A DNA stretch of 64,000 bases from Vairimorpha necatrix (Eukaryota), in NCBI GenBank assembly GCA_036630325.1, contig CP142727.1, positions 1,426,001 through 1,490,000 on the forward strand, read 5' to 3'. Both the position numbers and the translations under genes were made by a program. Positions 791 through 64,000 of the stretch are shown in pieces. The notes beneath the pieces were generated by a model. The model was not told the origin of the DNA, did no database searches, and saw nothing but the letters and a program-made list of their open reading frames with translations. Each line of letters opens with the position of its first letter. The stretch's first letter is position 1.

Positions 791-977
791 CTTAAAAAGG
801 GCAATAAAAAATTTTACACTAAAAAATAATCAAATTTTGGCTTTTTGAATTGTCCAAAGAGGTGTTTAATAATTTTATTAAAGATGTTGTCTTATTAAAA
901 TATTGTATTTATAATTATCTATAGAAGATATAATTTTGTCTAAATAAAAGTTAAGTAAACATTAATGATCTTTTATT

Positions 978-1406
978 TTATTGATCTTTACTATAAATTA
1001 AGCTTAAGAGATACATGATACTCACTTTACCATTCGCATCGGGATTTATTATTCTTAATATCTCCGCCAGTTCATATTCATCAAGTGCATATTGGCCAGT
1101 TGACAATGTATTGATCAGGGTATTGGCGTCAACTGTATCAGATTTATCAGAACTCAGAGATTCAAGACACTGTCTCAATTCTTCTTTAGAAATCTCATTT
1201 TTCTGTAATTCTTCACAGTGGATTAAATATTCACTAAAAGACAAGCCTGTCTCTGGACAACTTTGCCTTATCTTTTCTAAGGCCTTGTCTGTCAAAGAGA
1301 AGCCGGCGTGACTGAACAATTTATACAAATCGTCAACATGGACAGTCTCATGAGGAGAATCAACAAATAATTGGAAAACTTTAGACAATCTATTTTTATA
1401 ATCCAT
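978..1406 (-). CDS. Calmodulin/myosin-light-chain-like EF-hand protein (142 aa)
   Basis: Calmodulin-like size and helix pattern (LSKVFQLF..., ELRQCLESLSSDKSDTVDANTL, ELAEILRIINPDANGKVSI). ACCC directly precedes the ATG. Confidence 0.8.
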   Translation of the reverse strand: MDYKNRLSKVFQLFVDSPHETVHVDDLYKLFSHAGFSLTDKALEKIRQSCPETGLSFSEYLIHCEELQKNEISKEELRQCLESLSSDKSDTVDANTLINTLSTGQYALDEYELAEILRIINPDANGKVSIMYLLSLIYSKDQ

Positions 1407-1663
1407 GGGTATAAAAAAATGAACAAGAAAAGAACATTACAATTTATTTGTAATATTTTTACACAAAAAAATTTATATTTTTTTTTTACCAAGATATAAG
1501 AAAAGAACTTTACAATTTATTTATTATATTTTTACACAAATAAAAACATCTAGTTTTTGTTACAAATATATAAAAATTTATAGTTTTTTTTTCAAGATAT
1601 ATTTATAAGTTTTTTACAAATCTAATTTTATTTACATTTTCTATAATAATAACACATATAAAT

Positions 1664-2146
1664 TTACAAACTTCTTAAATTTAACATTAAAATTCTCTTT
1701 TCATTTTTACAATAAAAGAAAAAACAGAAATACCATTTACAATTCTCAAATGGTCCACTTCTATTTTTATACGAAAATATCTCGCATTTATCAAGTCGAA
1801 CTGTCTTGTCAATAATCAAACTTATAAATTGCACAAAATCTGACACTTACTTTTTACATTTATACAAAACCATAAGTGAGTACATAAGCTCATTTACTAC
1901 ATCTTGGTATGGCATAAGTGTGAAACTTAGAGCATTTTCATTCTCGAAATCGTAGTCCGGGTAGGCCAGGGCTAGTGTCTGGACGAGGTAACGAAAAGGC
2001 TTAGGGAGGGTATTAAATATTTTATCATTTTTTGAAGATTTACAAGAAAAGACTTCGAGATCAATTGTGAACGAAGGATGTTTCTCTTGGATTGATTTAA
2101 AAATCTCATTAGTTTTTAAGATTTGAGATATTTGTAAATATTTCAT
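1664..2146 (-). CDS. MAF1: Maf1 (RNA polymerase III repressor) homolog with one in-frame TAA at 1847-1849
   Basis: Two in-frame ORFs join into a Maf1 layout: MKYLQ...EVFSCK...DK (A box), YLVQTLALAYPDYDF (B box), LDKCEIFSY...GPF...WYFCFFFYCKNEKRIL (C box). The ATG at 2146 is preceded by ACCCTC. Confidence 0.85.
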
Positions 2147-2688
2147 GAGGGTATAGAAAAAAACAAACATAAACAAAATCAAACTAATGATCTAAATACA
2201 TATCTAAAAGTAAATTAAGTCTATAATAAACGCAATCTCGATGTATCTATAATAAACGCAGTATATTTGCATATTAAATTTAATGTATTTTTATTAACAA
2301 CGTAATTTATAATGCAAAACACACGTAACGTATTGTAAACCAATGATCTCCTCGATCAATCGCACATTACACATCCTCTAACATTTCCTCTTCAAAAATA
2401 AATTTTAATTAAACTTTATAATTTAATATTAAAAATTAGATTAAAAATAAGTAGCAACTCGAAATTCCAAACACAACCACTAGTAGCTCCCTTTTTATTG
2501 TGAAAACTCAAGCTATTTTTGGAATAAAAGAAAAAATTAATTAATACACATTTGAGATTGTTTACATCTAAACACAGACAAACAGATTAGAGAAAATAAA
2601 CTGATAAAAACAAATGATATCAAAAAAAAACATAGCAAACAAACACTTTGGCCGAGAAAAGATGGATTTATTGTAAATAAAAAACTTT

Positions 2689-2840
2689 AAATATGGCAAA
2701 TAGGCAGTAGCAAATATGGTAAATAAGCTAGTAAAAATATGGTAAATAGGCTAGTAAAAATATGGTAAATAAGCTACTAAAAATATGGTAAATAAACTAG
2801 TAAAAAACTGGTAAATAAACAAGTAAAAATATGGTAAATT
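2689..2840. repeat. Minisatellite, ~23-bp unit (AAAATATGGTAAATAAGCTAGTA), about 6 imperfect copies
   Basis: Tandem copies read directly, with no spacers. Lies in the divergent intergenic region between Maf1 and the homeobox gene. Confidence 0.9.
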
Positions 2841-3300
2841 GATATGGAAATTGTTAATACAATTAGTCACATAGAACAAAACAAATTTTACACCACTAGC
2901 AAACAAATATATAATAGGAAACAAATTATATTGAAATTTTAATTCTAATAATTTCGAATCTAATTATTTAAATTAATTTATGTCACTTTTCTCCCTTTTA
3001 TATAAATTTAGCAGCTTAGTATCATAAATATAAAATTCATAATACTCAAAAAAAAGTCAAGAAAAAACATAAAATTGATAATTTTATGTTTTGTTTTATT
3101 CATAATTAATTGAAAATTACGTTTTTGTTTATTTTATTTCAAAACTTTTAAAAATTATTTATTGATCAAAAAAAAAACAATAAAAAATGTTAAAAATTTT
3201 TTATTTTTGAAAATTCGTAATAAATATGTCAAAGTACTTATTTATCTGACTCATCATAGCTAATTTTTTTACTTTAATACTAAAAAATTCTAATACCCTC

Positions 3301-14703: not shown

Positions 14704-15991
14704 GGCTAAAGTGCACTATAGGAATATTTTTTGAACTAGGTTTTTTTTATTTTTTTGCCCTTTTTTTGAAAAATGGAGGAAGAAAGATGGAGAGGAAGTA
14801 TTAATAATTATATATAATGAACTGATAAGAGATAAAACAATTAATATTTGTGATCAATGTGGAGGTAAAATACGTAAAGTAAGTAAAAAAGAGCATTTAC
14901 CAACTTGTGCTTGGAAGGGATGTCGAAATACAATTTCTATTTGACATGAAACTTTCTTTAGTAATTCTAAACTATGTCATTTACTAACATTACAAATACT
15001 TATTCTGTGTTTTCTTGGAATCCCAATACGTATATTTGTCAAATTTTACGTTATTTGAAAAAACTATATCTACAGTATTAAAAAAACTAAAGAAATGTAC
15101 ATTTACGATGAGTATTTGTCATCAATGACCATTATACGGCGAAGAAGACATAATAGTAGAATTTGATGAGACAAAGATAGGAAAAAATAAAAACTACCTA
15201 GGCAAGCTAGTGAAAGGATTTTGATGTTTTGGAATGACCAAACGTACAATAATACTAGATCACATAAAAAAGAGATAAAGAAACTCTAACAAAACTTTTA
15301 TTAAAATATGTAAACACAAAAAGTATCATACATAGTGATATGTGGAGAGCCTATAATTCTTTAGGTACTTTATTTAACCAACACCATATGATTAACCATA
15401 CATTACACTATAAAGACCCAATCGCGGGAGTTCATTCCAATTGCATAGATTGTATTTGGCGTTCTCTAAAAAATTCTATACCTAATAGAAACAGATCAGC
15501 CAATAGTGCAAAACTATATTTGTTTAGGTATATATGTGGTATTATTTACCACATTACTTATTTTTATTTTATATTCCCTCCAAACGAATATTTTAGAAAA
15601 TATTTTACTATAAATATTTTCTCTTTATTTTACCCCAACAAAAAAAAGATGAACAATCAAGAGAATATGAATAACTACGGGAGGACACAAAGATACCTAC
15701 CCCCTCACAAGAGGACAGCTAATTACCCACATGGGAATAGCATTAATAAAAACCATTTTACTAAAACAAATTTAGGTGCAGGGAGAAGCATTCTTGAATG
15801 CTATTTACATTATGGCCATCTCCCTGGTGGAAACACCACAATATACTCCAAAGAAAATCTTCTACTTGAGTCTTTGCTGCTTATAAATCTTTTATTCTAC
15901 TTGTTAATTTTCTTTCTTCCTCCATTTATAAAAAGGGGAAAAAAATAAAAAACCCCTGGTTCAAAAAATATTCCTATGGTGCACTTTAGCT
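14704..15991 (+). mobile_element. Decayed Merlin (ISXO2-like) DNA transposon carrying a nested solo LTR
   Basis: Long (~85 bp) imperfect TIRs beginning GGCTAAAGTGCAC. 8-bp TSD TTAAGCAA/TAAAGCAA. Broken transposase with CDQCG, IVEFDETKIG, IHSDMWRAY and NH...DP..GVHSNCIDCIW motifs. Confidence 0.88.
15535..15840 (+). mobile_element. Solo LTR (306 bp), diverged member of the ~286-bp LTR family
   Basis: TGTGGT...ACCACA termini; perfect 5-bp TSD ATATA; similar to the copies at 28455, 51469 and 53156. Confidence 0.88.
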
Positions 15992-20647: not shown

Positions 20648-20696
20648 TGTGTTTATTTTCCACAATGAGGGGTAAAAATAATAAGGATATATAACA
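20648..20696 (-). repeat. 3' LTR (49 bp)
   Basis: Minus strand TGTTATATATCCTTATTATTTTTACCCCTCATTGTGGAAAATAAACACA, directly after the PPT at 20697-20706. Confidence 0.9.
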
Positions 20697-20723
20697 TCCC
20701 CCCTCCAAGACGGTAGTCTCATA

Positions 20724-23459
20724 CTAGAACTCATTAATCCCAAGCAGACCTTTTAAATCATAATGCCGCTTTTTCACGATCCTACCATTTTCCAAACTAA
20801 CTAAGTACGAGTCACCTCCGCAAACTTCCTTAATAACACCATATCCTAAAAACCTTCCTTTCTCATACTTACTACAACCCGATAAGTTCTCTTTCTTCGC
20901 TACCCTAACTCTCTGACTTTTATAGAATTTCTCTCTTTTGCGAGCCACAAACCTCCTACTATAAAATCCTTCAGGTCCATTCTCGATCATAACATGGCCC
21001 GTTTCGTCTCTTGAGGCCTCAAACGGTGTACATCTCAACCCTTCATGATAGCTGTTATTATAACGCCATATACATCTATTAACCTTGGCTTCAAAATCCA
21101 CAGCATTATCTTTCAATATTCCTTCTCTTATGGTTCCTATTACCCTTTCCACTCTTCCATTACTTCTATGACTTTCTACGCTTACTTTCCTATGTAATAC
21201 ATTTTCCTCTGAACACCAATTCCTCATATATTCATTATTAAATTCTTTACCGTTGTCAGTAATTATTTCTACCGGTTTCATTCCTGATCCACACAACTGT
21301 TTTAAAAATCCTACAACCGAGCTTCCGCGTTTGTCCTCTATTACTTTTCCCCAAACGATCCTAGTATAATAATCAATCACGACCAACACATATTTCCCTA
21401 AATCTCTAAACTCAGACAAATCCAAAGCAACCTTTTCCAAATAAAATCTTGAACTAACAAAATCACAACCACCACTCTTTTTCCTATTATATATTTGGCA
21501 AACTTCACACTTCTTTAAAACATCCTCGATATCCTTCTTCATACCCGGCCAATAAAATTCAAACTTCATTGCATAGTACACTGATCCTAAACTTCTATGT
21601 CCCAAATTTTCATGAGCATTGACAATTAAACCTTCACGCAATTCTTTCTTTGGAATCTCCGCTTCTCTACCAGAGTCAAATACCCAAATTTCCTTCCCAT
21701 CAACAACTTTAACATGCTTGTCCCATTTACCCTGTGCCTGTTTAATACTTCTCTCCTTATTCATTAGCGTTTTCTCATTTTCATGTACCCTACTCAGTGC
21801 ATCTGCTACAACCATGGTACTAGGCTCTCTATATTCAATGCTAAAGTCGAACTCTTGAATCTTTTCAATCCACCTGTTAATTCTATTATTGTTAAATGCT
21901 GGTTTATTTCTAATCTCGATCAATGCCTTATGATCAGTTTCTACCCTAAATCTTCTTCCGCGTAGTTCATATTCAAACTTTTTAATTCCCCAAAAGACTG
22001 CATACATCTCCTTCTCACTGATTCCATATCTCGTTTCCGTAGGCGTAAACTTTTTTGATGCCCACTGTACTGGTACCCAATTACCTTGATCATCTTCCTG
22101 CATTAAAACAGCACCCATTCCAACATTACTCGCATCCGTGCGTAACAAAAATTCCTTATTATAATTAACAATTGCTAAACCTTTTAAATCCCTAATCACT
22201 TCCCTTAAACTAATATATTCTTTTTCCATTTCTTCTGTCCATTTCCAATTACTTCCTCGTCCTTTAAGAGAATCCGTCAACGCCAATGTACGTTTTGCAT
22301 AATTATCAATATGATTTCTAAACCATCCAGCCAGCCCAAGAAACTTCCTAACATCTGATACACACTCCGGTTTGGGAAATTCTAACGCTTCATTTTGCTT
22401 TATTTCAGATGGCAGTATCTCCTTGCCATTAACTGTTACTCCTAACAACATCACCTCTCGTTTACATAATTGAACCTTAGCCAAATTAATTTTCATACTA
22501 TTCTCCTCTATTATATCCACAGCCTCTTTCAACAATTTGTCATGACCCTCTCTTGTCTTACTATGAATCACAATATCGTCCATATAAATTTCGATTCCCT
22601 TACCAATAAATTTTTCAAAAATCCCATTCATTATTCTTTGTAATATCTGCGGTGAGTTTTTAATCCCCATGACCATCGAATTCCACTCGTATACCTTTTT
22701 ATTAAACTCAAAAGCCGTCTTAAACCTATCCTTCTCTTCAATCTCAATACTATAAAACCCCTCCTTTAGATCTATCACGGTAAAAAATTCAGATCCCTGT
22801 GTACTTCTAATAACATCTCTTATCCTAGTTAACTCATAAGGATCCTTCTCTACAATGTCATTAAGAGCAATTAAATTACTTACTAATCTTATATCACCAT
22901 TCGGTTTCTCAATCGCTCTAATGGGATTTCTCCAGTCAGATGTCGACCTTCTAATTATCTTTCTTCTTTCCAAACTATTAATATAATCTTCCGTCTTCTT
23001 CAACAAAGCCTGAGCTATAGCCTGCCCTTTTTTAACAACTTTCTTGCCTTCTTGAGTCTTGATAATACATTTTTCAACCTTACAAAAACTAATATCTTCA
23101 TCCTCTCTTCCCCCTACCCGTACAATAATCTCCTCTAAATACGCGATGCCTCTTACATCCCTTCTCAACAGAACTCTCTTATTATTGTCCCTTTTGCTAT
23201 AATCTTGTATATCCCCTAAATTTTTCTTCTTACGTTTCCCACCATCAACATTATAATAATCACATTTGTCCGAATTGGAATCGTCATCACATTTACCCTC
23301 TAAGTCTAATTGCACTTTACATTTACCAACATAATTAAAACTACTTTTATTTCTTCTGTCTTCAGAATCTCGCCTCATTCCCCTACAAAATCTAACACTA
23401 TGGCCTAACTTCCCACAATTGTAGCAACGCATATTCTTTTTATTTTCCTCACGAGACAA
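20724..23459 (-). CDS. pol: Zinc knuckle + reverse transcriptase + RNase H + integrase polyprotein (911 aa)
   Basis: CYNCGKLGHSVRFC knuckle; RT VIDLKEGF...YMDD; RNase H TDAS/EKE/TDH/ADALSR; integrase HHCC (HENLGH...CEVC) and DDE (ALDL, TDNG, VER). No D[ST]G protease motif seen. Confidence 0.96.
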   Translation of the reverse strand: MSREENKKNMRCYNCGKLGHSVRFCRGMRRDSEDRRNKSSFNYVGKCKVQLDLEGKCDDDSNSDKCDYYNVDGGKRKKKNLGDIQDYSKRDNNKRVLLRRDVRGIAYLEEIIVRVGGREDEDISFCKVEKCIIKTQEGKKVVKKGQAIAQALLKKTEDYINSLERRKIIRRSTSDWRNPIRAIEKPNGDIRLVSNLIALNDIVEKDPYELTRIRDVIRSTQGSEFFTVIDLKEGFYSIEIEEKDRFKTAFEFNKKVYEWNSMVMGIKNSPQILQRIMNGIFEKFIGKGIEIYMDDIVIHSKTREGHDKLLKEAVDIIEENSMKINLAKVQLCKREVMLLGVTVNGKEILPSEIKQNEALEFPKPECVSDVRKFLGLAGWFRNHIDNYAKRTLALTDSLKGRGSNWKWTEEMEKEYISLREVIRDLKGLAIVNYNKEFLLRTDASNVGMGAVLMQEDDQGNWVPVQWASKKFTPTETRYGISEKEMYAVFWGIKKFEYELRGRRFRVETDHKALIEIRNKPAFNNNRINRWIEKIQEFDFSIEYREPSTMVVADALSRVHENEKTLMNKERSIKQAQGKWDKHVKVVDGKEIWVFDSGREAEIPKKELREGLIVNAHENLGHRSLGSVYYAMKFEFYWPGMKKDIEDVLKKCEVCQIYNRKKSGGCDFVSSRFYLEKVALDLSEFRDLGKYVLVVIDYYTRIVWGKVIEDKRGSSVVGFLKQLCGSGMKPVEIITDNGKEFNNEYMRNWCSEENVLHRKVSVESHRSNGRVERVIGTIREGILKDNAVDFEAKVNRCIWRYNNSYHEGLRCTPFEASRDETGHVMIENGPEGFYSRRFVARKREKFYKSQRVRVAKKENLSGCSKYEKGRFLGYGVIKEVCGGDSYLVSLENGRIVKKRHYDLKGLLGINEF

Positions 23460-23797
23460 CTTATTCTTCTACAAAATTTAGCCCATAACGCTAGGGACAA
23501 CTCTTCAAATTCTTTTTTTCTCGCTTGTTCCTTTTCCTCCTGAATAGCTAGCAACTCTAATTTTTCCTCAATTTCCTTCCAACTACCCTCTTGCGAGATC
23601 CTCTCAACAATAAAATTTCTCAATAAAATAGAACCTCTCCTAAAAATTTCTAATTTAAATCCACACTCATCAATTTTCTCTAAAAACAACTCATAAACAA
23701 TCCTTTTAACCTCTTTTAATAATATTCTAGCCTCTTGGCCACGGTCCTCCTTTGTAGACCCATTTTCTGGTATCGCCCCCATGTGTTTATTTTCCAT
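23405..23797 (-). CDS. gag: Short Gag-like ORF (130 aa) starting inside the 5' LTR
   Basis: The ATG at 23797 lies within the LTR (23782-23830), after CCCCTCATT. The ORF overlaps the downstream knuckle/pol ORF, which is in the -1 frame. The gag call is positional. Confidence 0.7.
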   Translation of the reverse strand: MENKHMGAIPENGSTKEDRGQEARILLKEVKRIVYELFLEKIDECGFKLEIFRRGSILLRNFIVERISQEGSWKEIEEKLELLAIQEEKEQARKKEFEELSLALWAKFCRRISCLVRKIKRICVATIVGS

Positions 23798-23830
23798 AAT
23801 GAGGGGTAAAAATAATAAGGATATATAACA
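23782..23830 (-). repeat. 5' LTR (49 bp)
   Basis: Minus strand TGTTATATATCCTTATTATTTTTACCCCTCATTATGGAAAATAAACACA, followed immediately by TGGGGGCGA (23781-23773). Confidence 0.9.
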
Positions 23831-23953: not shown

Positions 23954-25749
23954 TGTCACCGTCCGGAGCGGACGCAAGGGAAAATGCTTACTTGAGAAGG
24001 GTAAAAAATTAAGTAAAAAAATATCCGTCCGGAGCGGACGCAGGGGAAAATGCTTATTTGAGAAGGGTAAAAAATTAAGTAAAAAAATCGTTGGTTTTTC
24101 TTTGTAATTTGTATATAAAAATTATTTAATTTTAGGGGCATGAAAATAAAATTGGATAACAATGAAAGACAAGAAGTTTTTGTCTTTTTACAGACTGGTA
24201 TCGTTCCAACAAGGTTGGTTGAAAGACAAGCAAGAGACGCTTTTAGGAAAAAAAGCAAAAAAATTTATTTTTTTTGAGGAAGTAATTGATGGTATCACAG
24301 AGCTCACGGTGAGATTTAAAGTAGGTCTATATAAATCGTTAAGATTCTTTACCACCAACGAGCAACGTTTTAAAATTGATCCACGTCTCAAATGGGCATG
24401 CGGGACGGGACAGATTGTTTCCATTATTGCAAACAAAAGTCTACGACGCAACCAAAAACGATATCCAAAGAGTTTTGAATAGCTGTGAAATATGTCAATC
24501 AAAGAGAAATCTAGTAACTAGACCAGTTATTAGACCAATTGTATCAAAATATCCAAGGGAAAGATATGTTGCAGACTTGATTGATCTCCGGCTATATCAC
24601 GAACTCAATGAAGGATATAAATGGTTATTAAATGTTGTAGATTCTTTTACCAAATTTTGTTGGACGGTACCACTGCTTGACAAAACAGGTATTAGCGTAG
24701 GGAATGCTTTTGAAACATTGTTTAGGACGTTTGGCCCTTGTTTTATACTTCATACTGATAACGGCAGAGAATTTGTAAATCAAGTACTTGTCGATTTATG
24801 TCAGAAATATGAAATAAGACACGTAAGGGGGAGAGCTAGATGTCCATGGATACAAGGACAGATAGAACGATGCAATCAAACAATAAAGTGGATGATTGCA
24901 TCCACTCTCAGGACAAAAAATATTATGGTGCAATGGACCAAGGTAAGAGAAGAAGTTACCTGGTCATATAATAATTTAAGACACTCTACTACGAGACAAA
25001 CACCATTCTCTTTAATGTTTGATAGGCCCATTAGGGAAATAATGGACGAGTCTAGAATCACAGGCATTCTAGATTCGATTAATAGCGAAAATCATGAACA
25101 AGAGTTAGAGGACGAAGAACGCACTGGAGAAAGTTTATCAGATGTTCTAGATGGCAATACCAATGAAGAAATACAGCAACTCTATGCTCTTAATAACACA
25201 AATCTTTTTTTAAATGAAATTTATCATGATGCAGCTAGAATTCATACACAAACTGCTGCAGATAGAATGGTGCAAAGAAGTATGTGGAGAAATGATTTTT
25301 TAGAATTTAAAATTGGTGATAGAGTTTTTATAAGACCTTATCTGGACAACAATGTCAATACCAGAAGACATTCGCTTTATGAACATTTAGATGCGGAAAT
25401 CTATGTTGTAGCCGACATAATACAATTTAATAAAGTGAAATTATGCAGAGAAGATGATAATGGAATTATTTTAGATGAAATAAGTACTAGGGATCTTAGG
25501 TTGCTTGGAAATGAATAAAGTACTAAAAATTTTGTTTATTTTTTTTTCTCTTTTTTTCATTATTCCTTCCCATTATTATAAAAATAAAACAAAAATATAC
25601 CCCTAAAAACTCGTGACAAAATTTGGGCAGTCATTTAAGAGAAAATTTATTTTTTCTTATTTTTTGGTTCGATCCTCACTGAAGAGATTTTTTTTAATTT
25701 TTTACCCCTTGCGTCCGCTGCGGACGGGCGTCCGCTCCGGACTGTGACA
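23954..25749 (+). mobile_element. Ginger2/TDD-like DNA transposon with a retroviral-type integrase
   Basis: TIRs TGTCACCGTCCGGAGCGGACGC...GCGTCCGCTCCGGACTGTGACA; perfect 5-bp TSD CTACA; single integrase gene and no RT. Confidence 0.9.
24140..25518 (+). pseudogene. HHCC/DDE (rve) integrase-like transposase, KRBA2/SCAND3-like, with two apparent frameshifts (~24250 A-run and ~24370)
   Basis: MKIKLDNNERQEVFVFLQTG...FRKK/AKKF.../IHVSNGH...CEIC, ADLID, VVDSFTKF, HTDNGREF, QGQIERCNQTIK. GGGG precedes the ATG at 24140. Confidence 0.85.
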
Positions 25750-28454: not shown

Positions 28455-28741
28455 TGTGGTATTATTTACCACATTATTATATTTTCCCTCCAAATGAATT
28501 TTCTAGAATTTATTTTTTAAAAATATTTTCTTTTTATTTTTAACACACAAAAAATATGTCGAGAAGAACAGAGGAGTCTAGAGAACAGCAGTATCAATCA
28601 CTGCATCCCCAGAAGAGGGAAGACAATGATCAAGGAGGCAGATTAAATAAATACAACATTAATTATAACCAAACTTTAATACCCGGGAGAAGCATCATAG
28701 AATGCTATCTGAGGAACGGCTAACTCCCGGGTAATACCTCA
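28455..28741 (+). mobile_element. Solo LTR (287 bp)
   Basis: TGTGGTATTA...TAATACCTCA termini; perfect 5-bp TSD CTACT; close match to the LTRs at 51469 and 53156. Confidence 0.93.
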
Positions 28742-37920: not shown

Positions 37921-39289
37921 ATCTTATGTGATAACAAGGAATGTGTGTATATATATGCGTACTTTTTAGTTTATTGTTTCATCTTTTCTTTAAGTAAATC
38001 AAAGTATGTCCTTATTATGAAGATTTTAAAACAGAATGATTCTAAAAGTTTCTAATGTAACCGTGGGCGTTTTACGATTTAACATTCTAACATAAGAATA
38101 AAATTAATAAATGTATACTAATTGGTAAAAATTTTTATTATAATGATTAAATATTTTAAAAACTCCCAGAAACAACCTATATTTTAATTACAATTACATC
38201 TAAATATATATACAAATCTTTAAGTATCAGCAATATTTCTAATTTTTTTGGCAAATGGAAAGTATCTATGTATATTTTACATGAGAGAGATAATGAACAA
38301 AAAAAGGAGAAATTGACATCTCATAAAAACTAGTAAAAATAACATATGTAGTATATGTAAGTAAATTGTGAAGTTTTTTATTCTAATTAAAACCTTTATT
38401 ACATACATGATTTAAATTTTTTTAAAAAGTATCTATCTGCACATATATATATATATATATAAAAGTACAAAATAGAAAACTTAAAAATCAAGAAAAATAT
38501 ACATAAATATTAGTGCAGTGAAATTAATTGTATTGAAATAATAGAACTTTCTATATGGTAACATATAATATATAAGTATTTTTATGTAATTAAAACATTC
38601 AATTATATAATTTTTGCCGGTATCAACACATAGAATAAATAGATTTTGAATTAAACAAATCAGAATATAATTTGTGTATAAATCAATAACAAAGATTTTT
38701 TGAATCTATAGATGAATTCTTTATTTGGAATACATCGAGGTACATTAGAAAGAATATAATCGTGGATAAAAAACAACCAATACCCCATTGGAAACAATAC
38801 TTTATAAAAATACAACACTTTAACATAATATAAAACGAAATTTAAATATCATGAAGATTTTATATTTTATTTATTTAATACGAGGGAGCGATTATATAAA
38901 TGTATCGAGAATAAACACAATTTCTATTAAGAATAATAGCAAAATCTCATAAGTACGTATGTATGAATTTAACATTGAAATTATCTAAAAATTATAATTT
39001 TTATACATAAATGTAGATATTATCGTAGCCAATAAAATACTGATCAATCATATTCTCACAAATTGACAGATTTAATTGGCTACAAAAAGTATTTAAAATA
39101 ATTTCCAAAAGATGGCATGGAAAATAAAAAGAACAAATTGATATATTTCAAATAAATAACATCTAATAAAATCAAGATACTTATATTATATAATTATATA
39201 TAATTTTTTGCATAATTTAATGAGAATTTCTAAAAAAATAAGCTTGAATAAGAATTGTCATATTTATAAAAAATATGTTATGTCTAAAT

Positions 39290-40951: not shown

Positions 40952-41626
40952 TATAGAGATTATTACACTATCAGAAAAAAAATTGACTGTCTTGTGATGT
41001 GATATTGTATAATACTCTATTTATAGTAGTATTAATTTCACAAAACTTCATTGTCATTCCAAACTTGTCTTATCTCTTTATTGCACCAATCCAATCTTTG
41101 ATTTCTCATTGCCCATAAACAAAAAAATTTTATTTAATATTTTAGGAGGGAAATTTAAAATAAACAAAAATTTAAAAGAGCGTAGATTTTGAATTTAAAG
41201 GATTTAATAGCAAAAACAAAACAAATTTTACTTTATAAATTAATTAAAAAATATACAATCAAAAACTAAACAAATATGTTAATTACTCTTTATTCAATGA
41301 TCTTTATTTGAAATTTATTATTAATTTTTCTTTGTCTATAGAGTAACAACTCAATTAAAAAGATGATCAGATGGTATTTTTTAAATAAAATACGGCCTTT
41401 AAATTTTTTAAATTCTCTGGCATTTTTGAAGAAATTCAAAATTTAATTAAATTTTTACTAAAAATCAATCGTAATGTCAAACTAAAATATTTTTTCCAAA
41501 ATAATAGTTACAGTTGTAAAATTTTAAAAGTTTAGGAATTCATTATTTCTAAACTATATAATTATTGTGTAAATATATATTAATATTTTAAAATCTTATT
41601 TGCATTCTGCAGAAATCTAAACATTT

Positions 41627-41935
41627 CTGGAAGCATACATTCAGTCTAATGTGATGAAGAAAACTCCAGAGTCCATCTCTTTGGAACGACGAACAAGATA
41701 CGATAAAGATTATGCAGGAGAGAAAGAAGTAACTAGAGCTTTAAGCGCAATTGCATATATGAAGAATGTTGAACAAGTGATGTCGGTATAGGAGAATGAA
41801 GCTAAAAATTTGGAGTTGAAAAACATAAATAATTCCACAGAAACCAAAGTCTATGAAGAGCCGAATCTAGTGAGCGATACCAAAGTAAACTGTGCTAATC
41901 TAACTTTAATGATAAATTAACTCAATAAATCTTTT
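41627..41935 (+). mobile_element. 5'-truncated copy of the RLE non-LTR element at 50088-51057
   Basis: Colinear similarity to ~50740-51053 (CTGGAAGCATA...CCAGAGTCCATCTCTTTGGAACGACGA...AATTAACTCAATAAATCTTTT). Confidence 0.88.
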
Positions 41936-42689
41936 ATATGTTGTCAACACTAAACACAAACATTGGCGTACTTACGAATGTAGTAACGACCATGGAACTT
42001 TCGTTTGATTGTGTGACCCAACTTGACATGCCTTTCAAAACGGTTGACATATTTTTGACATCTGTCCATGTGTTGTAGTAATGTACATCACAGTATCTAA
42101 GAAAAACAAAATCTCAATAAAGAATATTAGTTAAATCACATAAATATGTTTTTATAATTTTGTATTCGAAATTATTAAAAGAATGTAGTTCATATATAGT
42201 TGTAGCAGATCAAATATATATTAATCATATTCTTACAAATGACAGTTTTAACTTGTTGAAAAAATTATTTAAAAAAATTTACTTTAGAGGGTATGGAAAA
42301 TAAGAATAACAAAATTGCCAGATATAATAGAGAAATTGAAATAAGAAGCCAAGAAATCTTAAATTGTGCGGTCACATATGAAAGTATTTTGTATATAATA
42401 TAGGACATATACTTGTTTTTGCAGTGTAAAATGTTTACTATTTTTTAGTATAACATGTATATATATATAGAAATGTATATTTGGATCAAAGAAAATCTTA
42501 TATAATTTATTTTCCAAAAGAAAGCATAGAACTAATATTGTAAATTGTTCTATTATTTGTTTCATTCGATTTAATGATCTTTCAATATGACTAATATGAA
42601 ATGTTTCTTTGTGCATAGAAAGAAAACTAAAATTAAAGGAAGTTAAAAATATAATTGGTTTTCTTAAACGATAACCAAAATTAAAATAC

Positions 42690-48507: not shown

Positions 48508-48535
48508 TAAAAATCTAGATTTAGTATAAAAAAAT

Positions 48536-49681
48536 GGTACATGACCGTTTGTCACCCGCTTTGGGAAAATGAACCCGCATTGAAAAATTCAAAAAAAGGG
48601 AAAAATAAAAAAAATTATAAAAAAAGAGACTTAACGATTTATTTTGAATAATGAAAGAAGTCGATTAATTCTTTGGTTTTTTGCTATTTGATAAGACCAT
48701 AGAAACTGTAAAAGATACTCATAGTGCTCGTCCTGGTTTATTCCATGTATAGACCGAATATCTCTCTTCGAAAGAGACCAAAATCCTTCAATTTGTTGAG
48801 TAAGTGTCTCGGGATCGTTAGGATTTACAAAATTGATAGAGTGATTGACAGTCCTATGCTCCATCCCTGTGATTTGTCTAAATGCAGCACCATATGCTCT
48901 CCATTGATCAGTGATCACAATATAACCAGGCAATACATTATCTTGTATTAACTTAAGAAGCGTAGCAATATTTCTACTAGCTACAGGGACGAGAAAGGCC
49001 TTTCTAGAACCTCTTTCAACTCCTCCTACATACCACTGACCTGTGGTATGATTGCCACGATTATATTTGGCACGAAAGAATAGACTCTCGTCGATCTCCA
49101 CTACTTTAGGAATGCCTAACTCATCACGACCTCCTAACCTCTGGCTATTATTGGTCACTTCCTCGATTATGCGATCTCTGCAGAGCATACCATATGTACT
49201 TACGGTTTTTCTGTCTAGCTCAAGATCATTTGCTATATCGAGAAAGGAAACTCTTTTGATATACTTATATATCATTCTTATAATTTTATAAAAACTTAAT
49301 TTGGTATTTTCAAAAATAGAGTCTTTTCTGACAGATTTAGAAGTAGTACAAGGTTTCGTGAATTCCAAACATATTTGTCTAATAATCTTATTCTTCTAAT
49401 CAATTTCATTGGCCTTTCAGAGCTGCATACAGTACAAAAAAAGTTGTTTTGTATTAATGAACTGCGTGCCAGAAACATACACGCTGTCTCAGCATCATAA
49501 AATGTTTCCAAAATAAAATTTTCATTTATTTCCATGTTTAAAAACATTTCATCACTTAAAAGCTCATCTTCTATAACAAAATTTGTTTTTGTCAATCTTG
49601 CCATTTTTTGAAAGGGGGGGGTCCTTTAATTTTTCAATGCGGGTTCATTTTCCCAAAGCGGGTTCCAAACGGTCATGTACC
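48536..49681 (-). mobile_element. Near-intact Merlin (ISXO2/IS1595-like) DNA transposon, 1146 bp
   Basis: 54-bp TIRs GGTACATGACCGTTTG..ACCCGCTTTGGGAAAATGAACCCGCATTGAAAAATT (2 mismatches); perfect 8-bp TSD AAAAAAAT. Confidence 0.95.
48631..49604 (-). pseudogene. Merlin DDE transposase with one frameshift near 49360-49370
   Basis: N-terminal CTVC...KYVW in one frame; KPC..SVRKDSIF, VEIDES, ITDQWRAY, VNHS.NFV and TQQIEGFW in the other. A C7 run precedes the ATG. Confidence 0.92.
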
Positions 49682-50087
49682 AAAAAAATATATTTAGAAA
49701 AAACATGTTGGCCATGTAAAAGAAGGTGAGTAGTAATTTGGTTGTCGGTAATGAATTTTGATTTTTTTTTATTAAGATAATTAAAACAACGGATTATATT
49801 ACAATAAATACTAAATGAAGGATAAATCATCAGATCAAGCCTTGTAGAATTCTAGTATTTTTTATCGATGTAAGGTTCATATTAATCTTGTCTATTATAT
49901 TTAATGAACCTAATCTTTTTGTAATATTTAATTTATATATTTTGGGATCTGAAATTATCTTCATTTAAGGAAAATATTTAAAAAAAATATTTTAAATATA
50001 TTATGATTAAACAAAAATGATATATTAAAAATTTAAATAAGATAACTTATAGAGTATAATAAAAAGATATATATATATATATTTGAA

Positions 50088-51057
50088 AAAATGAGGGTAA
50101 GGACAGAGCAGGAGGAAGAAACCGAAAAAATTACAAAACAAACCTCTATAGCAAACATAGACAAAGTAGACACAGAAGAGAAAGAACAGGGGCCAGAACA
50201 CACTAGTGTGCCCACTCATCTTCTGTGGACAAGAGGGACAATGTCCCCATTGTGGATCTCATAGGAAGACCGTGGATCATTTAGCTACCAAGTGTGATCG
50301 AATGTTGGGTTTTGATTATATGAAAAGACACAACGAGGTAGTTAGATGCATTCATCTCTTACTATGTATTAAATATGGGTTTAAGAAGACAAAGAAAATA
50401 CGTGGACACTCAGTACAAGAGATCATGGAAAATGATCGTGCAGAAATAAGAGTAGATACGAGAATATCCACTAATATAAAGGTAACCCATAATAAGCCTG
50501 ATATTCTTGTGTTTGACAAGAAGAAGAAAGAAATTTTAATAGTTGAAGTTGGTATAACCAACCAGGATCGACTTACTATAGTTGAGAATGAAAAACTAAG
50601 AAAATATGACCTTCTTGCAAATGAACTGGGACTAATACATAAATCCCGGACAAGAATAGTTCCTTATGTAATGACATGGGATGGAGTGGTGACCAAATAT
50701 CACAGAAAGTACATCAGGGAGCTAGAAATCCAACCCTACCTGGAAGCATATATCCAGTCTATTGTGATGAAGAAGACTCTAGAGTCCATCTCTTTGGAAC
50801 GACGACGAGGATACGATCAGGAGGATGCAGGAGAAGAAGAAGTGGCTAGAGCTGTAAGCGCACTAGCGAATATGGCGACTGTTAAAGAAGTGGTGTCGGC
50901 AAAGGGGAATGAAGCTGCTAAAGTGAAGTTGGAAAACATTAATAATTCCACAGAAACCAAAGTCTGTGAAGAGCTGAATCCCATGAGCGATACCGGGGAA
51001 AGCTGTGCTATGAATATCTAAACATAATTGAAAATTAACTCAATAAATCTTTTATTT
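50088..51057 (+). mobile_element. Partial non-LTR retrotransposon with a restriction-like endonuclease (R2/R4/NeSL-type group); RT absent
   Basis: ORF 50206-51021 has the CCHC motif CPHC...DHLATKC, RHNEV and the PD-(D/E)xK-type KPDILVFD...VEVG...K..KY. Ends in AATAAA. Candidate 10-bp TSD TATATTTGAA (50078-87 and 51058-67). Confidence 0.88.
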
Positions 51058-51468: not shown

Positions 51469-53441
51469 TGTGGTATTATTTACCACATTATTATATTTTC
51501 CTCCAAATGAATTTTCTAGAATTTATTTTTATATAAATATTTTCTTTTTATTTTTACCCCCACCAAAATATGTCAAGAAGAACAGAGGAGTCTAGAAATC
51601 AGCAGTATCAATCACTGCATCCCCAGAAAAGGGAAGATAAAGCCCAAGGAGGCAGATTTAATAATACAACTTTAATTATAATAAAACTTTAATACCCGTC
51701 AGAAGCATTATAGAATGCTATCTGAGGAACGGCCAACTCCCGGGTAATACCTCAATGAGCTCATTAGTATTAGAAAAAAGTAATAATACTGAGAAATAAA
51801 ATGATGATGAAGCATATACCACATTTGATAAAACCATAGAAGGAACTACAATAGTGTTTAAAGAAAAAATTGAAAAATGTAAAACGTGACTGCACCATAA
51901 ATCATCTCGAGCTGTTTGAAGAGCTAGGAACGGCCAATAAATGGACAAATGAGCAGATGGGACTCATCTACCATTCTTTGATTGAAGATTCTAAGGTGAA
52001 AGATAAGCTAAATAAGAAAAGCTTTAAAAAACAAAAAAAAGAACTACTAGAATTCAGATATCCAAAAAATGATGTAGCTTTATTATTAACAGAGATGGAA
52101 ACTGTAAAACAGGTAAATTATAGAAGTATAGCAGATTACTTCGAGAAAATAAAGTCGATGATTAAAATATACGGACTATCTATAAACCTATCGAAAAAGG
52201 AATCTGATGTTAGATTGAAACAGATTTTTGAAAAAGGATTAGGCAGATCAACTGCCATTGAAGTTTTAAAATCAGGAATGAAAAACAAGGTAATGGACGA
52301 GCTATTAAAATATTCACAGGATCTGGAAGAAATGATTATTTTACAGGTGAAACTGGAAGGGAGACTTTATCTCAATTTATATCTAAGAAAGAGAATTATG
52401 AAAGACCTGAAGAAACAGGAAGATACTTTAAAAGTGATAAGTGGTGCTCTATACATCGAGCAAGATCACATGATACACGAGATTGTCGTCTACAAAAACC
52501 AAAAGCCAACGATAGAGAAATAAAAAAAGAAGGAAAATCGTTAATGATAAAAAAAATTCCTAACGATGAATTGGATAAAAAAATAAAAAAACCGACTGCC
52601 TATTAATTCAGAAACAAAAAGAAAATAAAATCATCAATAAACAGAAATGTATAAATGAAAGAATAAATAATATAGATAATTGTATTAAAAGGAATTTGAA
52701 TAAAAAATAGACAATCTTCTAGCTAAAGTCTTAACTAATATAGTTGACTTTGTGAAAAGGACAGGGAATACGATACCATCAGATGATATATATTCAAAAA
52801 TATTAAAATAAATAACAAAGGAAGAAGCAAGCCTCCTGATAAAATTAAAGATAACCATCAACAGGTAAAAGATTTGGCAACATCTAAATATGATAGTTAT
52901 CAGAATAAAAAAAAAATCTTGGAACTTTCAGAAAACATTGCCTCAAAAATAAAATGCAGCAGATGCAATTTAGCATATGTAGATATGGAGTAAAGGGCGA
53001 ATCTGAGAAGCTCAAATGTGATAAGTTAAACTCATACCTTGATTCGAGGTTTAGAATATCCAACCCAGCTATTTCTTAGAAACGGCGAAAAGAACTATTT
53101 GATGATTTCGGAGGAATCCGTATTCTAATTTGCTGATTTTTTGCAGGAGGTAGTATGTGGTATTATTTGCCACATTATTATATTTTCCCTCCAAATGAAT
53201 TTTTAGAATTTATTTTTCTATAAATATTTTCTTTTTATTTTTACCCCCACCAAAATATGTCAATAAGAACAGAGGAGTCTAGAAATAAGCAGTATCAATC
53301 AATGCATCCTTAGAAGAGGAAAGATAAAGCCCAAGGAGGCAGATTTAATAATACAACTTGCATTATAATAAAACTTTAATACCCGGGAGAAGCATTATAG
53401 AATGCTATCTGAGGAATGGCCAACTCCCGGGTAATACCTAA
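51469..53441 (+). mobile_element. Internally deleted LTR retrotransposon (two 286-bp LTRs, gag remnant, no pol)
   Basis: LTRs at 51469-51754 and 53156-53441; perfect 5-bp TSD GAATT; purine-rich GCAGGAGGTAGTA before the 3' LTR. Gag-like ORF 51870-52523 (LFEELGTANKW...) plus a frameshifted WCSIHRARSHDTRDC knuckle variant at ~52442. Confidence 0.92.
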
Positions 53442-59400: not shown

Positions 59401-59744
59401 ATGTTAACAAATTGTTACGTCCTTTTACTTTCTATCAATAATGATCAAATTTTTTTATTCAAAGTGATTATCATAAGCTTTCCTAAAGAGTATAAGCTTT
59501 TGTGTCTGTATATATGCGTTAATACAGCATTCGAGATTTAAGTTATTTGTATAATTCCCTAAAATATTTTTTTTTAGTATAATACGAATATTTCCAGTAA
59601 GAAATATGTTAAAACACAAAAATGACTTTTTTTTACAATGAAATATATTACAAATTAAAGAAGTAATTTCATACTTTTACAATATATTATTACATAAATT
59701 TATTCGCAAAATTACACCAAAAATACTTTGTGTTTTAATTATAA

Positions 59745-62700
59745 TGTTAAAGTTGAACCTTTTATTAAATAAATGTATAACATGGCAAACACAAAAGACG
59801 AAAGGGTAACAAGTGAGACCTGTGTTTAAGAGAAGATAAAATTACTAAAAGAAACTCAGAGAGTAGAAGCAATCATCAGAATGCAGAAAGAAAAAGATGA
59901 GACAACGAAGCAGTCGATAAAACAAGTAAATTCTGAGCTTCAGGATTTTATTATTGATAAAAATTTAATCATTATGATTAATTGGAATAATATTATTGAT
60001 GAAATTGATAAATTAGTTATTGAAGAGGAAGAGAATAAGAACAAGGAAAAAATAAGGAGTAGAGAACTAGAAGATATGGTAGAGGGTATGAAGGAAAAAT
60101 TAAAAAGAAGATGAAAGGATAACTGACTAGGACTGTAGCAGTGTCAGGAAGATACTTTCAATATCAAAGACGAGAAGAAAAACATTGGTTTATATGTGGG
60201 AGAATTATACATATAGCTAGAGGTTGTATGGAGCGTAAAGGAAGACAGGAAGAGAATAATGAAAATAAAAGTGTTAAATATTTTGGCATTTGTGGAAAAG
60301 TAAAATGAAAATATTAAAAATGAAATGATTTTAAATTGAGACTACCAGTGGAGGTAAAAAGAGAGAACTCAAGAAACAGTTTTTATGTAAAAAATACAAA
60401 CCAAGATAAAAGAAGAAAAAATATTAATAAATATGAAGAATTAGAAGGAAAATTTTCGAGGTATTGTGAAAAGACAGAGGGAAAAGAAAATACTTAACAG
60501 GGATAAAATGTTCTTTTAAAACAAAACAATGAGTAAAAGTAGTGCAAAAGAAACAAAATATTCCTTATAAACTCCGAGAAAAGGCAGAAAAGTATATTAA
60601 TTTATTAGAAAGTAGAGGTATTATCAGAAAGACAAAGAGCAAATGGAAAAGCCTAATAAAGCCCATAGAAAAACCAAATGGTAAAGTACAATTGAGAAGC
60701 AATTTGATGGCTTATAATGAACTGGAATAAAAAGATCCGTATGATTTGCCATTGATTAGAGACATATTAAAGCAACGCAAGGTTCTAAAGTATTTATGGT
60801 TATAGACCTAAAGGAAAGATTCTATCATATAGAAATTGAGAGAGCTTACAAACATAAGACAGCTTTTAAGATAAATGGTAGAGTTTACGAATGGAATGGC
60901 ATGGTAAAGGGATTAAAAAATGCTCCCCATATTATGCAAAGAGTGATGAACGGAGTTTTAGATAAGTTTAGAGGCAAGAGTGTTGAGGTGTACATGGATT
61001 TTATTATTTATGCATGAGATAGTAATATACAAGAAAATTTTTTAAAACAAGTAATTCGAAAATTTAATGAATGTGGATTAAAAGTAAACTCAAGAAAGAT
61101 ACAATATAAATTAGGAGAAGAAAAACTACTTGGAGTAACAATTAACTGAGAAGACATTAAACCGAAAAAATATATAGGAGTAGACATTAGAATACAGAAA
61201 GCCTAACAACATAAAAGATCTTAGAAGAGTTGAGGAGCGGGCAGGCCGGTTAAGAGATTTTATTCATCATTATGCTTATCGGTCAGCGCTTCTTACAAGA
61301 GCACTAAAAAAAGATAGTAAATGAAAATGGTCCCAAGATATGGAAAGAGCTTTTATGGATATCAAAGAGGATTTAAAGGATGTGAAAAAATTAAAAATAG
61401 AAGATAGATAAAAAAATATTTAGAGTAAGAACGTGTGCATGCGATAAGGGAATTGGAGTTATACTTCTGCAAGAAGACAAGGAAGATAGGTAGATTCTGA
61501 TACAATGGGCATCAAAAATGCTAACACCAACAGCTAAAAAGTATACGATTAGTGAAAAAGAGATGTTGGCAGTGTTATTTGAAATAAAGAAATTCGAGTC
61601 AGATTTGGGGGAAGAAAATTTCAATAAATGACAAATCATAAAGGAATGGCCGAGATTAGAAACAAACCGTTTTTTAATAATTACATAATTAAGAGATGGA
61701 TAGAATATATACAAGAGTTCGATTTTACTATTGAATATGTAAAAACAGAATTGATGATGTATGTGGATGCTCTTAGTAGACAATTTAAAAATAACGAAGT
61801 AATTGAAAAGGCGAAAGAGATAAACGCACCAAAAACAAATTAAATGGAAAGAAAAAAAGCGCATGGTTAAAAGAGAAGGCAAAAACTATTGGAAGTTCTC
61901 AACAATAGAAATTATTAAATACAACACAAAAAAATAAATGAGAACAGAAATTCGCAGAGTTCATGAGGAATTAAATCATCGTGAAGTGAAAAAGACCTTA
62001 TTATAAGGAAAAACAAAGATTGTACTGACCAGCTATTTGACCAGATATCCACAACGCTAAAAAATTGTGGAATATAGTGCATTAATAACAGAAAAACGAC
62101 TGGAGGTTGCAATTTTGTAACTATATTTAAGAAATTAGAAAAAGTAGCTTTACACGTAATTGTTATCGAGGAAAACAAAAAATACCTGCTATTAGGGATT
62201 GACTACTTAGAAGAAAAGTATAGGGCGCAAAAATGGAAAATAGAGGAAGTGATGTTAATACGAAAATTTTAGGATATTTGATAAATGAAGATGGATGCCC
62301 AGATGAATATTTCGGATAACGGTAAGAAATTTCTCAGTGAGAAGTTTGTAACTTGGTGTAAAGAAAACGGAATTATGCAATGGAAAGTAGGTTTAGAAGC
62401 TCATAAGAGCAATGGAAAATTGAACGATGTATTTGAACAATAAGGGAATCATTGATTAAATAAAAAGAAGGAAACCCAGAGTAAAAACTAGAACAAGCTA
62501 AGAACCTATTATAACATTTTACACACAGCGATAAAATGTACACCAATGGAAGCATGTAAAGAACAAGGAAAAGAAGTCTTTATTGAAAACGTTAAAAAGG
62601 GTGTGTATGCAAGTAATTTTAAACAAAGGAAAGAGATAAAATTTGAAGTAGATCAGGCTGTGAGAATCGCAAGATAAAAAACTTGGGTAAACAGATGAAA

Positions 62701-62914
62701 TGTATGAAAGGAAGTTTTACAAGTGTTGGTAAAATGATGGGAAAGTGTGAGAATGATTTTTATATTGTAAGGACTGATAGCTGAAAATACCTTAAGAAAC
62801 GACATTATGACCTAAAAGATTATAAAAATGATAAATTAGAAGCTTGTAACGTAGAACTACCCGTTTGGAGGGGGATGTTAGGGTTGAACTTTCCTATTAA
62901 ATAAATGTATAACA
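59745..62914 (+). mobile_element. Decayed Ty3/Gypsy element, 3170 bp, with 38/39-bp LTRs; relative of the 20648-23830 element
   Basis: LTRs at 59745-59782 and 62876-62914 (TGTTA...TATTAAATAAATGTATAACA); perfect 5-bp TSD TATAA; TGG after the 5' LTR; PPT GGAGGGGGA. Fragmented RT (IEKPNG, VIDLKE, YMD), RNase H (DALSR) and integrase, colinear with the 911-aa ORF. Confidence 0.93.
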
Positions 62915-63077
62915 TATAATCATTAATCTGAAAAAAAAATACTTGAATTAATAGATATTTAGTTAAAATTTATCTAAAAATTTTCATTTTTTATTTATTT
63001 TAGTTACATATTGATGTAACTGAATTTTTTTTTTAAAAAAAAGATTCAGGAAGGTTTGAGGGCTAAAAGCTGACGTG

Positions 63078-64000
63078 TTAGGTAGGTTAGGTAGGTTAGG
63101 TAGGTAGGTGGGTGGGGGGTGTGGTGGTTAGGGTAGGTAGGTGGTTAGGTAGGTAGGGTGGGGTAGGTAGGTTAGGTAGGTAGGTTAGGTAGGTGGTTAG
63201 GTAGGTAGGGTGGGGTAGGTAGGTTAGGTAGGTAGGTTAGGTAGGTAGGTTAGGTAGGTAGGTTAGGTAGGTTAGGTTAGGTAGGTTAGGTAGGTAGGTA
63301 GGTAGGTTAGGTAGGTAGGTGGTTAGGTTAGGTAGGTGGTTAGGTAGGTTAGGTAGGGTAGGTTAGGTTAGGTTAGGTTAGGTAGGTTAGGTAGGTAGGT
63401 TAGGTTAGGTTAGGTTAGGTAGGTTAGGTTAGGTTAGGTAGGGTAGGTAGGGTTAGGTAGGGTTAGGTAGGTAGGGTAGGTAGGTTAGGTAGGGTAGGTA
63501 GGTAGGTTAGGTAGGGTAGGGTAGGTAGGTTAGGTTAGGTTAGGTAGGTAGGTTAGGTAGGGTGGTAGGTAGGGTAGGGTAGGTGGGTAGGTTAGGTAGG
63601 GTTAGGTAGGGTTAGGTGGTGGTTAGGTAGGGTAGGTAGGTAGGTGGTGGTGGTTTAGGTTAGGTTAGGTAGGGTAGGTAGGTAGGGTAGGGTGGGGTAG
63701 GTAGGTAGGTAGGGTAGGTAGGTTAGGTGGTTAGGTAGGGTAGGTAGGGTAGGTAGGGTAGGTAGTAGGTTAGTAGGTTAGGTTAGGTTAGGTAGTAGGT
63801 TAGGTTAGGTAGGTAGGTTAGGTAGGTAGGTAGGTTAGGTAGGTTAGTTAGTAGGTTAGGTAGGTTTAGGTTTAGGTAGGTTAGGTTAGGTTAGGTTAGG
63901 TAGTAGGTTAGGTAGGTATGGTAGGTAGGTAGGTTAGGTAGGTTAGAGGTTAGGTTTAGGTAGGTAGGTTAGGTAGGTAGGTTAGGTAGGTTAGGTAGGT
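63078..64000 (+). repeat. Telomeric repeat tract of mixed TTAGG/TAGG units with TAGGG, TGG and TAG variants
   Basis: >900 bp, free of C on the plus strand, with the G-rich strand running 5'->3' toward the window end. Confidence 0.96.

Follow-up and report, generated by a model that had tools for sequence, protein, structure and literature searches.

The 3170-bp element at positions 59745-62914 (forward strand; hereafter E2) is probably a dead copy from a miniaturised microsporidian clade of Ty3/gypsy retrotransposons, whose members are ~3.1-3.2 kb long, carry long terminal repeats (LTRs) of 38-49 bp and a single open reading frame (ORF) of ~1000-1050 aa, and would follow an ordinary LTR cycle with its signals compressed. 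Coordinates refer to the window, i.e., the whole 64,000-nucleotide stretch of Vairimorpha necatrix contig CP142727.1 that was analysed. The host NFS1 matches Vairimorpha bombi and V. apis at 80-81% identity, as fits a Nosema/Vairimorpha-like microsporidian. The case for E2 is a conjunction of its ends, its target-site duplication (TSD), the position of its putative primer-binding site (PBS) and polypurine tract (PPT), and its relatives.

Ends, target site and interior of E2

E2 is a decayed Ty3/gypsy element on the forward strand, with the following features:

59740..59744, +, left target-site duplication TATAA (sequence)
59745..59782, +, 5' LTR, 38 bp, TGTT...AACA (repeat alignment)
59773..60227, +, decayed short Gag, with a degenerate zinc-knuckle remnant (~60186-60227) at its end (clade alignment)
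59783..59792, +, putative PBS TGGCAAACAC, directly after the 5' LTR
60458..61221, +, decayed reverse transcriptase (RT) with stops and frame changes (tblastn 50-59% to the clade protein P0031)
61419..61804, +, decayed RNase H (tblastn 50-70%)
61830..62817, +, decayed integrase (tblastn 32-49%)
62854..62866, +, conserved block before the PPT (comparison of six sequences)
62867..62875, +, PPT GGAGGGGGA, abutting the 3' LTR (sequence)
62876..62914, +, 3' LTR, 39 bp, TGTTA...AACA (repeat alignment)
62915..62919, +, right target-site duplication TATAA (sequence)

The layout reads TATAA, 38-bp repeat, TGGCAAACAC ... GAACTACCCGTTTGGAGGGGGA, 39-bp repeat, TATAA, and the observations of a sequence-only reading of this locus were recovered throughout. 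The lengths of 3170 bp for E2 and 3183 bp for a second element near 20.6 kb (E1) came out the same on remeasuring; the ends described as TGTTA...ACA read TGTTA...AACA in both LTRs; AATAAA and an ATG lie inside the LTR (59768-59773 and 59773, respectively); TGG directly follows the 5' LTR at 59783; the ACTACCCGTTTGGAGGGGGA block, similar to that of E1, precedes the 3' LTR; and the flanking TATAA duplication is exact (59740-59744 and 62915-62919). The AATAAA belongs to an ATTAAA/AATAAA run at 59764-59773, and the CC motif of this LTR is degenerate.

The two LTRs are identical at 34 of 39 columns, with four transitions and one gap between them, and the repeat ends at the LTR borders, because only 30-33% of positions agree without gaps in the 40 bases beyond it on either side. 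Given the flank composition, two flanking 5-mers would match by chance in ~0.45% of cases. Among 326 control window pairs, two reached the local score of the repeat (56), both belonging to a single, different duplicated segment, and four further control pairs scored close to it (47-54); taken alone, the similarity of the repeats is not decisive in DNA this AT-rich (26% GC). All differences between the LTRs fall within the first 19 bases, and a functional reading of this clustering was rejected, since the first half holds nearly all of the G/C and the changes are transitions.

An empty site was sought at 85% likeness in the contigs of three runs. Run X1 spans all 30 bins, including the flanks; one of its contigs crosses the 3' junction of E2 (62756-63023), and one links 59736 to 63031 (skipping 3294 positions, side 27, with intervening letters not known), which differs from the expected joint with a single TATAA. 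Run X3, with thin coverage (nine records), was left out of this comparison.

E2 is dead: there are 71-104 stops per forward frame, the longest open stretch is 94 aa, and the frame opened by the LTR ATG (MYNMAN) meets a stop after 18 codons. The interior matches E1 Pol in six pieces at 32-55% identity, RVT_1 is matched at 60760-61014 (E 3.8e-16), and the domain order of RT, RNase H and integrase, as expected of Ty3/gypsy elements, is retained. A non-autonomous (TRIM/SMART) identity was ruled out, as the interior is a decayed full gag-pol and relatives have intact ORFs. Starting ~160 bp past E2, a telomere-like array of mixed TTAGG, TAGG and TGG units occupies 63077-64000; compared with the TTAGG or TTAG repeats that PMC13174016 gives for microsporidia, it is more degenerate.

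A clade of compact elements

The comparator at 20.6 kb belongs to the same clade as E2:

20648..23830, -, E1, younger member of E2's clade in another subfamily (LTRs, ORF and tree)

Its LTRs are 49 bp each with one mismatch, its gag has one frameshift, and a CCHC-RT-RH-IN frame of 913 aa is open; an intact 1024-aa protein in public data (P0003) is 99% identical to it. E1 has no TSD (flanks TTTTT and TATTA), and near-identical LTRs without a TSD suggest either that two copies have recombined or that the assembly was joined here.

Relatives were collected with residues 1-600 of E1 Pol as the query. The best 120 of 201 matches were listed; the first 61 rows form the clade set and the other 59 the outgroup set, where P0100 is probably a clade fragment. 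Named sources among the 61 listed clade rows are Nosema granulosis, Vairimorpha necatrix, Enteropsectra breve and two bacterial metagenome-assembled genomes (MAGs). Full-length clade proteins mostly measure 985-1052 aa and hold a short helical Gag, a zinc knuckle, RT, RNase H and integrase in one ORF. Mean column identity in the clade is 40-44% with long ORFs intact, and the catalytic columns of RT, RNase H and the DDE integrase are invariant or nearly so. A quick FastTree tree of RT-RH-IN drew its 66 rows from the clade set (42 of 61 proteins) and the outgroup set (19 of 59), together with E1 and four X-filled decayed copies, and not from the published microsporidian families (Aalg retro L and Nbr5 are absent). 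In this tree, 47 rows formed one clade (SH 100), E2 paired with the ORF of locus L005 (SH 99), and E1 fell in a different subfamily. A search of viral contigs for clade relatives found none.

LTR length across the clade and beyond it

Eight outside loci were fetched (L001-L008), six of which gave at least one LTR, and only L003 is full length, at 3163 bp with LTRs of 39 and 39 bp and a perfect 5-bp TSD (TTATA). The 3' LTR of L005, sister to E2, is 38 bp long, and its last 22 bases agree with those of E2 at 20 positions; together these two loci bear out the earlier proposal that E2 most likely integrated with LTRs shorter than 40 bp. Single LTR ends cross-check within families: the 3' LTR of L004 (49 bp) is matched by a 5' LTR of 49 bp on the reverse strand of L002, and that of L008 (46 bp) by the 5' LTR of L007 (47 bp), both 5' LTRs being followed by TGG. 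L001 and L006 yielded no LTR, and a long LTR was found in none of the eight loci. LTR length thus ranges from 38 to 49 bp in five subfamilies of the 47-row clade. A TSD is present in two of three full-length members (E2 and L003, not E1), the PPT abuts the 3' LTR in 6/6 3' ends examined, and TGG follows the LTR in 5/5 5' ends in DNA (E1, E2, L002 reverse, L003 and L007).

The same junctions can be followed in the proteins. Among the 61 listed clade proteins, 22 read the LTR/PBS junction as [YHND]-M-[AG], 11 start with M[AG] (two probably at internal starts), two read [HD]GT in another frame, and 26 match none of these patterns, many of them being fragments; the C-terminus reads through the PPT into TGT in 13 of the 61. 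These protein-level reads argue that the compact layout is clade-wide. Logan contigs of full-length members (~3.0-3.3 kb) only slightly exceed the ORF length, and were rejected as evidence of LTR length because they show a compact interior only.

Two peculiarities of the fetched loci were also noted. L005-L008 are microsporidian-type gypsy elements in contigs of Clostridium and Turicibacter MAGs (GTDB genomes), most likely through binning contamination. At L001 50-427 and L002 1092-1469, a second RNase H-like piece lies in frame before the clade polyprotein frame, and the start of a reverse-strand clade element lies just upstream in this rearranged or nested locus.

Longer LTRs occur in the same window, in an element of another family:

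51469..53441, +, E3, internally deleted LTR element with 286-bp LTRs (263/286 identical) and TSD GAATT

E3 has an ATG inside its LTR after CCCC and a gag-like ORF at 51855-52520, and its 5' LTR is followed by a palindrome, ATGAGCTCAT, in place of TGG; LTR-like copies also lie at 28455-28738 and ~15532-15830. In Anncaliia algerae, LTRs measure 105-272 bp in 46 of 50 complete families, and 45, 50, 73 and 90 bp in the other four (PMC4202319, Table S1); the 45-bp entry, Retro S, was not counted as ultra-short, since its LTR looks ~81 bp long by eye. Short LTRs are the mark of one element clade, not of the host. The earlier suggestion that they are a lineage trait therefore stands for the five subfamilies of that clade, and falls both for the host, with its 286-bp LTRs in the same window, and for microsporidian gypsy elements in general.

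Several other repeats and mobile elements share the window. An open frame of 391 aa at 24343-25515 (+) holds an integrase zinc finger and an rve core, with no RT in frame, and we take it to be Ginger-like; a 66-bp tandem duplication (23959-24088) adjoins it. Two elements bounded by inverted repeats, at 48535-49682 and 14705-15990, carry transposase-like frames (58-bp arms 95% and 105-bp arms 77% complementary) and, by eye, are probably Merlin-type. The segments at 50170-51018 and 41611-41897 (82% alike over 287 bp) resemble by eye the zinc-knuckle/endonuclease end of a non-LTR retrotransposon, and a diverged direct repeat pair lies at 38902-39187 and ~42093-42370, 3.19 kb apart.

Protease and Gag

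As judged from sequence, a canonical aspartic protease between Gag and RT is absent from the clade. A protease HMM built from 26 outgroup proteases matched 0 of the 61 listed clade proteins but 45 of the 59 in the outgroup set, including 19 that had no part in building it, and the spacing between the knuckle and the RT motif is 99-178 aa in the 43 clade rows (of 61) that span this interval, compared to 242-720 aa in eight outgroup rows. In Pfam, no retropepsin family is assigned to the 16 clade proteins with complete listings, nor does one occur among 25 of the 54 families given for 46 members, and a six-frame translation of the window held no protease. The Pfam family 'Peptidase_A17' was rejected as a protease, since its matches cover the connection/RNase H region and not the Gag-RT interval. 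The linker of one protein (P0016) carries VVDTG, with too little room after it for a domain and no match to the HMM. In the structure model of P0003 (mean pLDDT 80), four N-terminal helices and the knuckle region are followed by a linker (residues 146-214, pLDDT <50) that is unfolded and of low confidence in the model, and then by RT; the best structural matches of the model are the RTs of CaMV and Ty3 (Foldseek E 1.8e-31 to Ty3 RT).

The Gag before the knuckle is ~100-180 aa long. Pfam finds zf-CCHC in 28 of 46 clade members and Retrotrans_gag in one of the 46, a weak match (E 0.0043) in P0054, which is deep-branching and has a longer Gag; this suggests that the protease was lost first and that Gag was shortened later. 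The capsid motif of outgroup Gags and the start of the clade Gag align in register, though not significantly (hhalign E 0.22), and the Gag N-terminus aligns with the Arc C-lobe over 64 residues (Z 5.4, rmsd 2.6 Å), a score not above that of unrelated rows. Structural searches with this N-terminus stayed empty at thresholds of E <= 0.001 (Foldseek) and Z >= 8 (VIA). A new fold is unsupported, as the lack of capsid folds among the top matches is no evidence for one.

It is possible, and we suggest it tentatively, that the clade is widespread in microsporidia and fully autonomous, its polyprotein staying uncut and protease-free, its capsid consisting of one lobe at most and its strong-stop DNA measuring only 10-25 nt, perhaps with help from a conserved RNA stem upstream of the PPT. 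We consider it rather unlikely that the clade is semi-parasitic, supplying its own RT, RNase H and integrase and borrowing a protease, and perhaps a capsid, from co-resident gypsy families with longer LTRs. Such borrowing would be in keeping with the missing protease and short Gag, with the other LTR families present in the same window and in A. algerae, and with the statement in PMC2474625 that almost every N. bombycis element encodes a protease; against it, the clade is old and diverse, as its mean column identity indicates, and keeps long ORFs intact, no conserved motif resembling a cleavage site is apparent by eye in the linker, and the six frames of the window contain no protease.

A proposed compressed replication cycle

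In the reading that we prefer, i.e., an ordinary LTR cycle with compressed signals, a U3 of ~20-30 nt would act as a host-type core promoter, made of an AT-rich run and CC(C) just before the ATG. Just before the ATG, microsporidian genes carry a CCC-like motif; they also have an AT-rich AAATTT-like signal and AAUAAA/AUUAAA, and their 5' UTRs are <7 nt (PMC2803860), from which R plus U5 would span only ~10-25 nt. All nine tabulated LTRs have a CC(C) run and the hexamer, with 10-20 nt separating their last or in-frame ATG from the LTR end. The hexamer begins upstream of the ATG in eight of the nine; AATAAA would thus probably lie within U3 in most members, and for this reason the poly(A) signal would act only in the 3' copy. 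E1 is the exception, with its AATAAA downstream of the ATG and 4 nt from the LTR end, a position that does not fit the proposed U3 step, and the AATAAA of E2 overlaps the ATG, just 9 nt from the LTR end.

A host tRNA would then prime at TGG, a strong-stop DNA of 10-25 nt would jump via an R of 10-20 nt, the PPT would prime the plus strand, and integrase would generate the 5-bp TSD, while the polyprotein may work uncut or be cut by a protease encoded elsewhere (by the host or another family). Transfer is efficient with a 12-nt R in MLV and 14 nt are enough in a lentiviral vector, whereas a 15-nt R lowers HIV-1 growth to 5% (PMC13370168); by analogy, an R of 10-20 nt would be feasible but near the limit.

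For the priming step, TGGCAAACAC reads Met-Ala-Asn-Thr in frame, and MANT occurs in 8 of the 61 listed clade proteins plus E2, recurring in separate subclades. TGG is also kept in another frame, as His-Gly-Thr in L002 reverse and P0053, and its retention despite the different frame argues that it is more than a Met codon. The recurrence of MANT and the frame-independent TGG fit a putative tRNA PBS of ~10 nt, the classes of which include TGGCAAAC, TGGCACCC and TGGGGGCG; tRNA genes and Rfam matches were found neither in the window nor in the fetched loci. That TGG is merely a Met codon and the next G, with self-priming or a pre-PPT stem used instead of a tRNA, seems improbable: the junction is indeed ATG-G in most members, and E3 has its palindrome where TGG would stand, but TGG is maintained in the subfamily with a different frame, MANT appears in several subclades within an otherwise variable, low-confidence N-terminus, as a fixed PBS of ~10 nt predicts, and by eye the LTR contains nothing complementary to the stretch that follows TGG.

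The pre-PPT block could form a stem of 4-6 bp in 6/6 3' ends, with arms GAAC/GTTT in E2, AGAC/GTCT in four relatives and GGAC/GTCT in one, i.e., with one two-sided change (E2) plus G-U variants. In two members the block pairs better with the PPT itself, and the stem is therefore a lead only, from six sequences.

It is very unlikely that the short repeats on which this cycle is built are chance repeats in AT-rich DNA, or what deletion or assembly collapse has left of longer LTRs. Such a reading could point to an E2 repeat score that reaches only the top 1-2% of control pairs, to the telomere-proximal, decayed locus of E2 and to the missing TSD of E1. Against it stand two independent elements whose TG...CA ends are directly flanked by TSDs, the lengths of 38-49 bp seen across five subfamilies and different data sets, and a published consensus with a 50-bp LTR (PMC4202319); L003 and L005 largely refute it.

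Relation to known elements

The short LTR of the clade is already recorded in print, in a 2014 supplementary table: Aalg retro L (Parisot et al. 2014, PMC4202319, Table S1) has an LTR of 50 bp, compared to 38/39 bp in E2, an ORF at 32-3049 and a total length of 3127 bp. By eye, its 5' end runs TGTTA...AATAAA...CCC-ATG...AACA and then TGG, as in the clade, and its Gag start and knuckle are clade-like (File S1 of the same paper). It is placed in Microsporidia Group 1 with Nbr5, Nbom_C, Nant_A and Nant_F (text of Fig. S1), and given Nbr5 beside retro L, the paper on Nbr1-8 (Xu et al. 2006) may already describe a clade member. Keyword look-ups in the main text of PMC4202319 returned no remark on short LTRs and no protease, PBS, PPT or target site.

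Microsporidian Groups 1-3 (Parisot et al. 2014) and Nbr1-8 likewise have one ORF with the order RT-RH-IN, and in most families of Table S1 the ORF begins inside the 5' LTR, as it does in the clade. Unlike the clade, most microsporidian families with a single polyprotein have LTRs of 105-272 bp and total lengths of 3.6-4.3 kb (PMC4202319), and a protease is described in nearly all N. bombycis Nbr elements (PMC2474625). SMART/FRetro129 of grasses, the smallest LTR retrotransposon according to a 2012 report (PMC3281118), is similar in its very short LTRs, TGT...ACA ends and 5-bp TSD; however, its LTRs are 85 bp and it is non-coding, whereas the LTRs of E2 are less than half as long and its family encodes its own enzymes. 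With yeast Ty3 (Metaviridae) the clade shares the RT fold, the domain order, a tRNA-type PBS (putative in the clade) and a PPT. Ty3 differs in its LTRs of several hundred bp, in keeping Gag3 and Pol3 in separate frames, and in having a capsid with two lobes and a protease that is essential.

Among the titles and abstract openings searched (subscription papers lay outside the search), none describes a clade with short LTRs or without a protease, and a term search of the main text of PMC7313128 gave no 'LTR', 'protease' or 'Gypsy'. In the literature searched, we found no treatment of LTRs of 38 bp, of the pattern across the clade or of the lack of a protease.

Implications

As a dead copy, E2 contributes chiefly a second data point anchored by a TSD. 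At 38 bp, compared to the 85 bp of the grass element, the clade would mark the natural lower limit of LTR length for an enzyme-coding LTR element. With default settings, common LTR finders look only for LTRs of ~100 bp or more, and the clade has therefore probably been missed in microsporidian annotations. Its members make two questions testable, namely the minimum R/U5 for first strand transfer and the need for Gag-Pol cleavage, and if the clade is indeed autonomous without a protease, it would represent a minimal working form of the retrovirus-like cycle.
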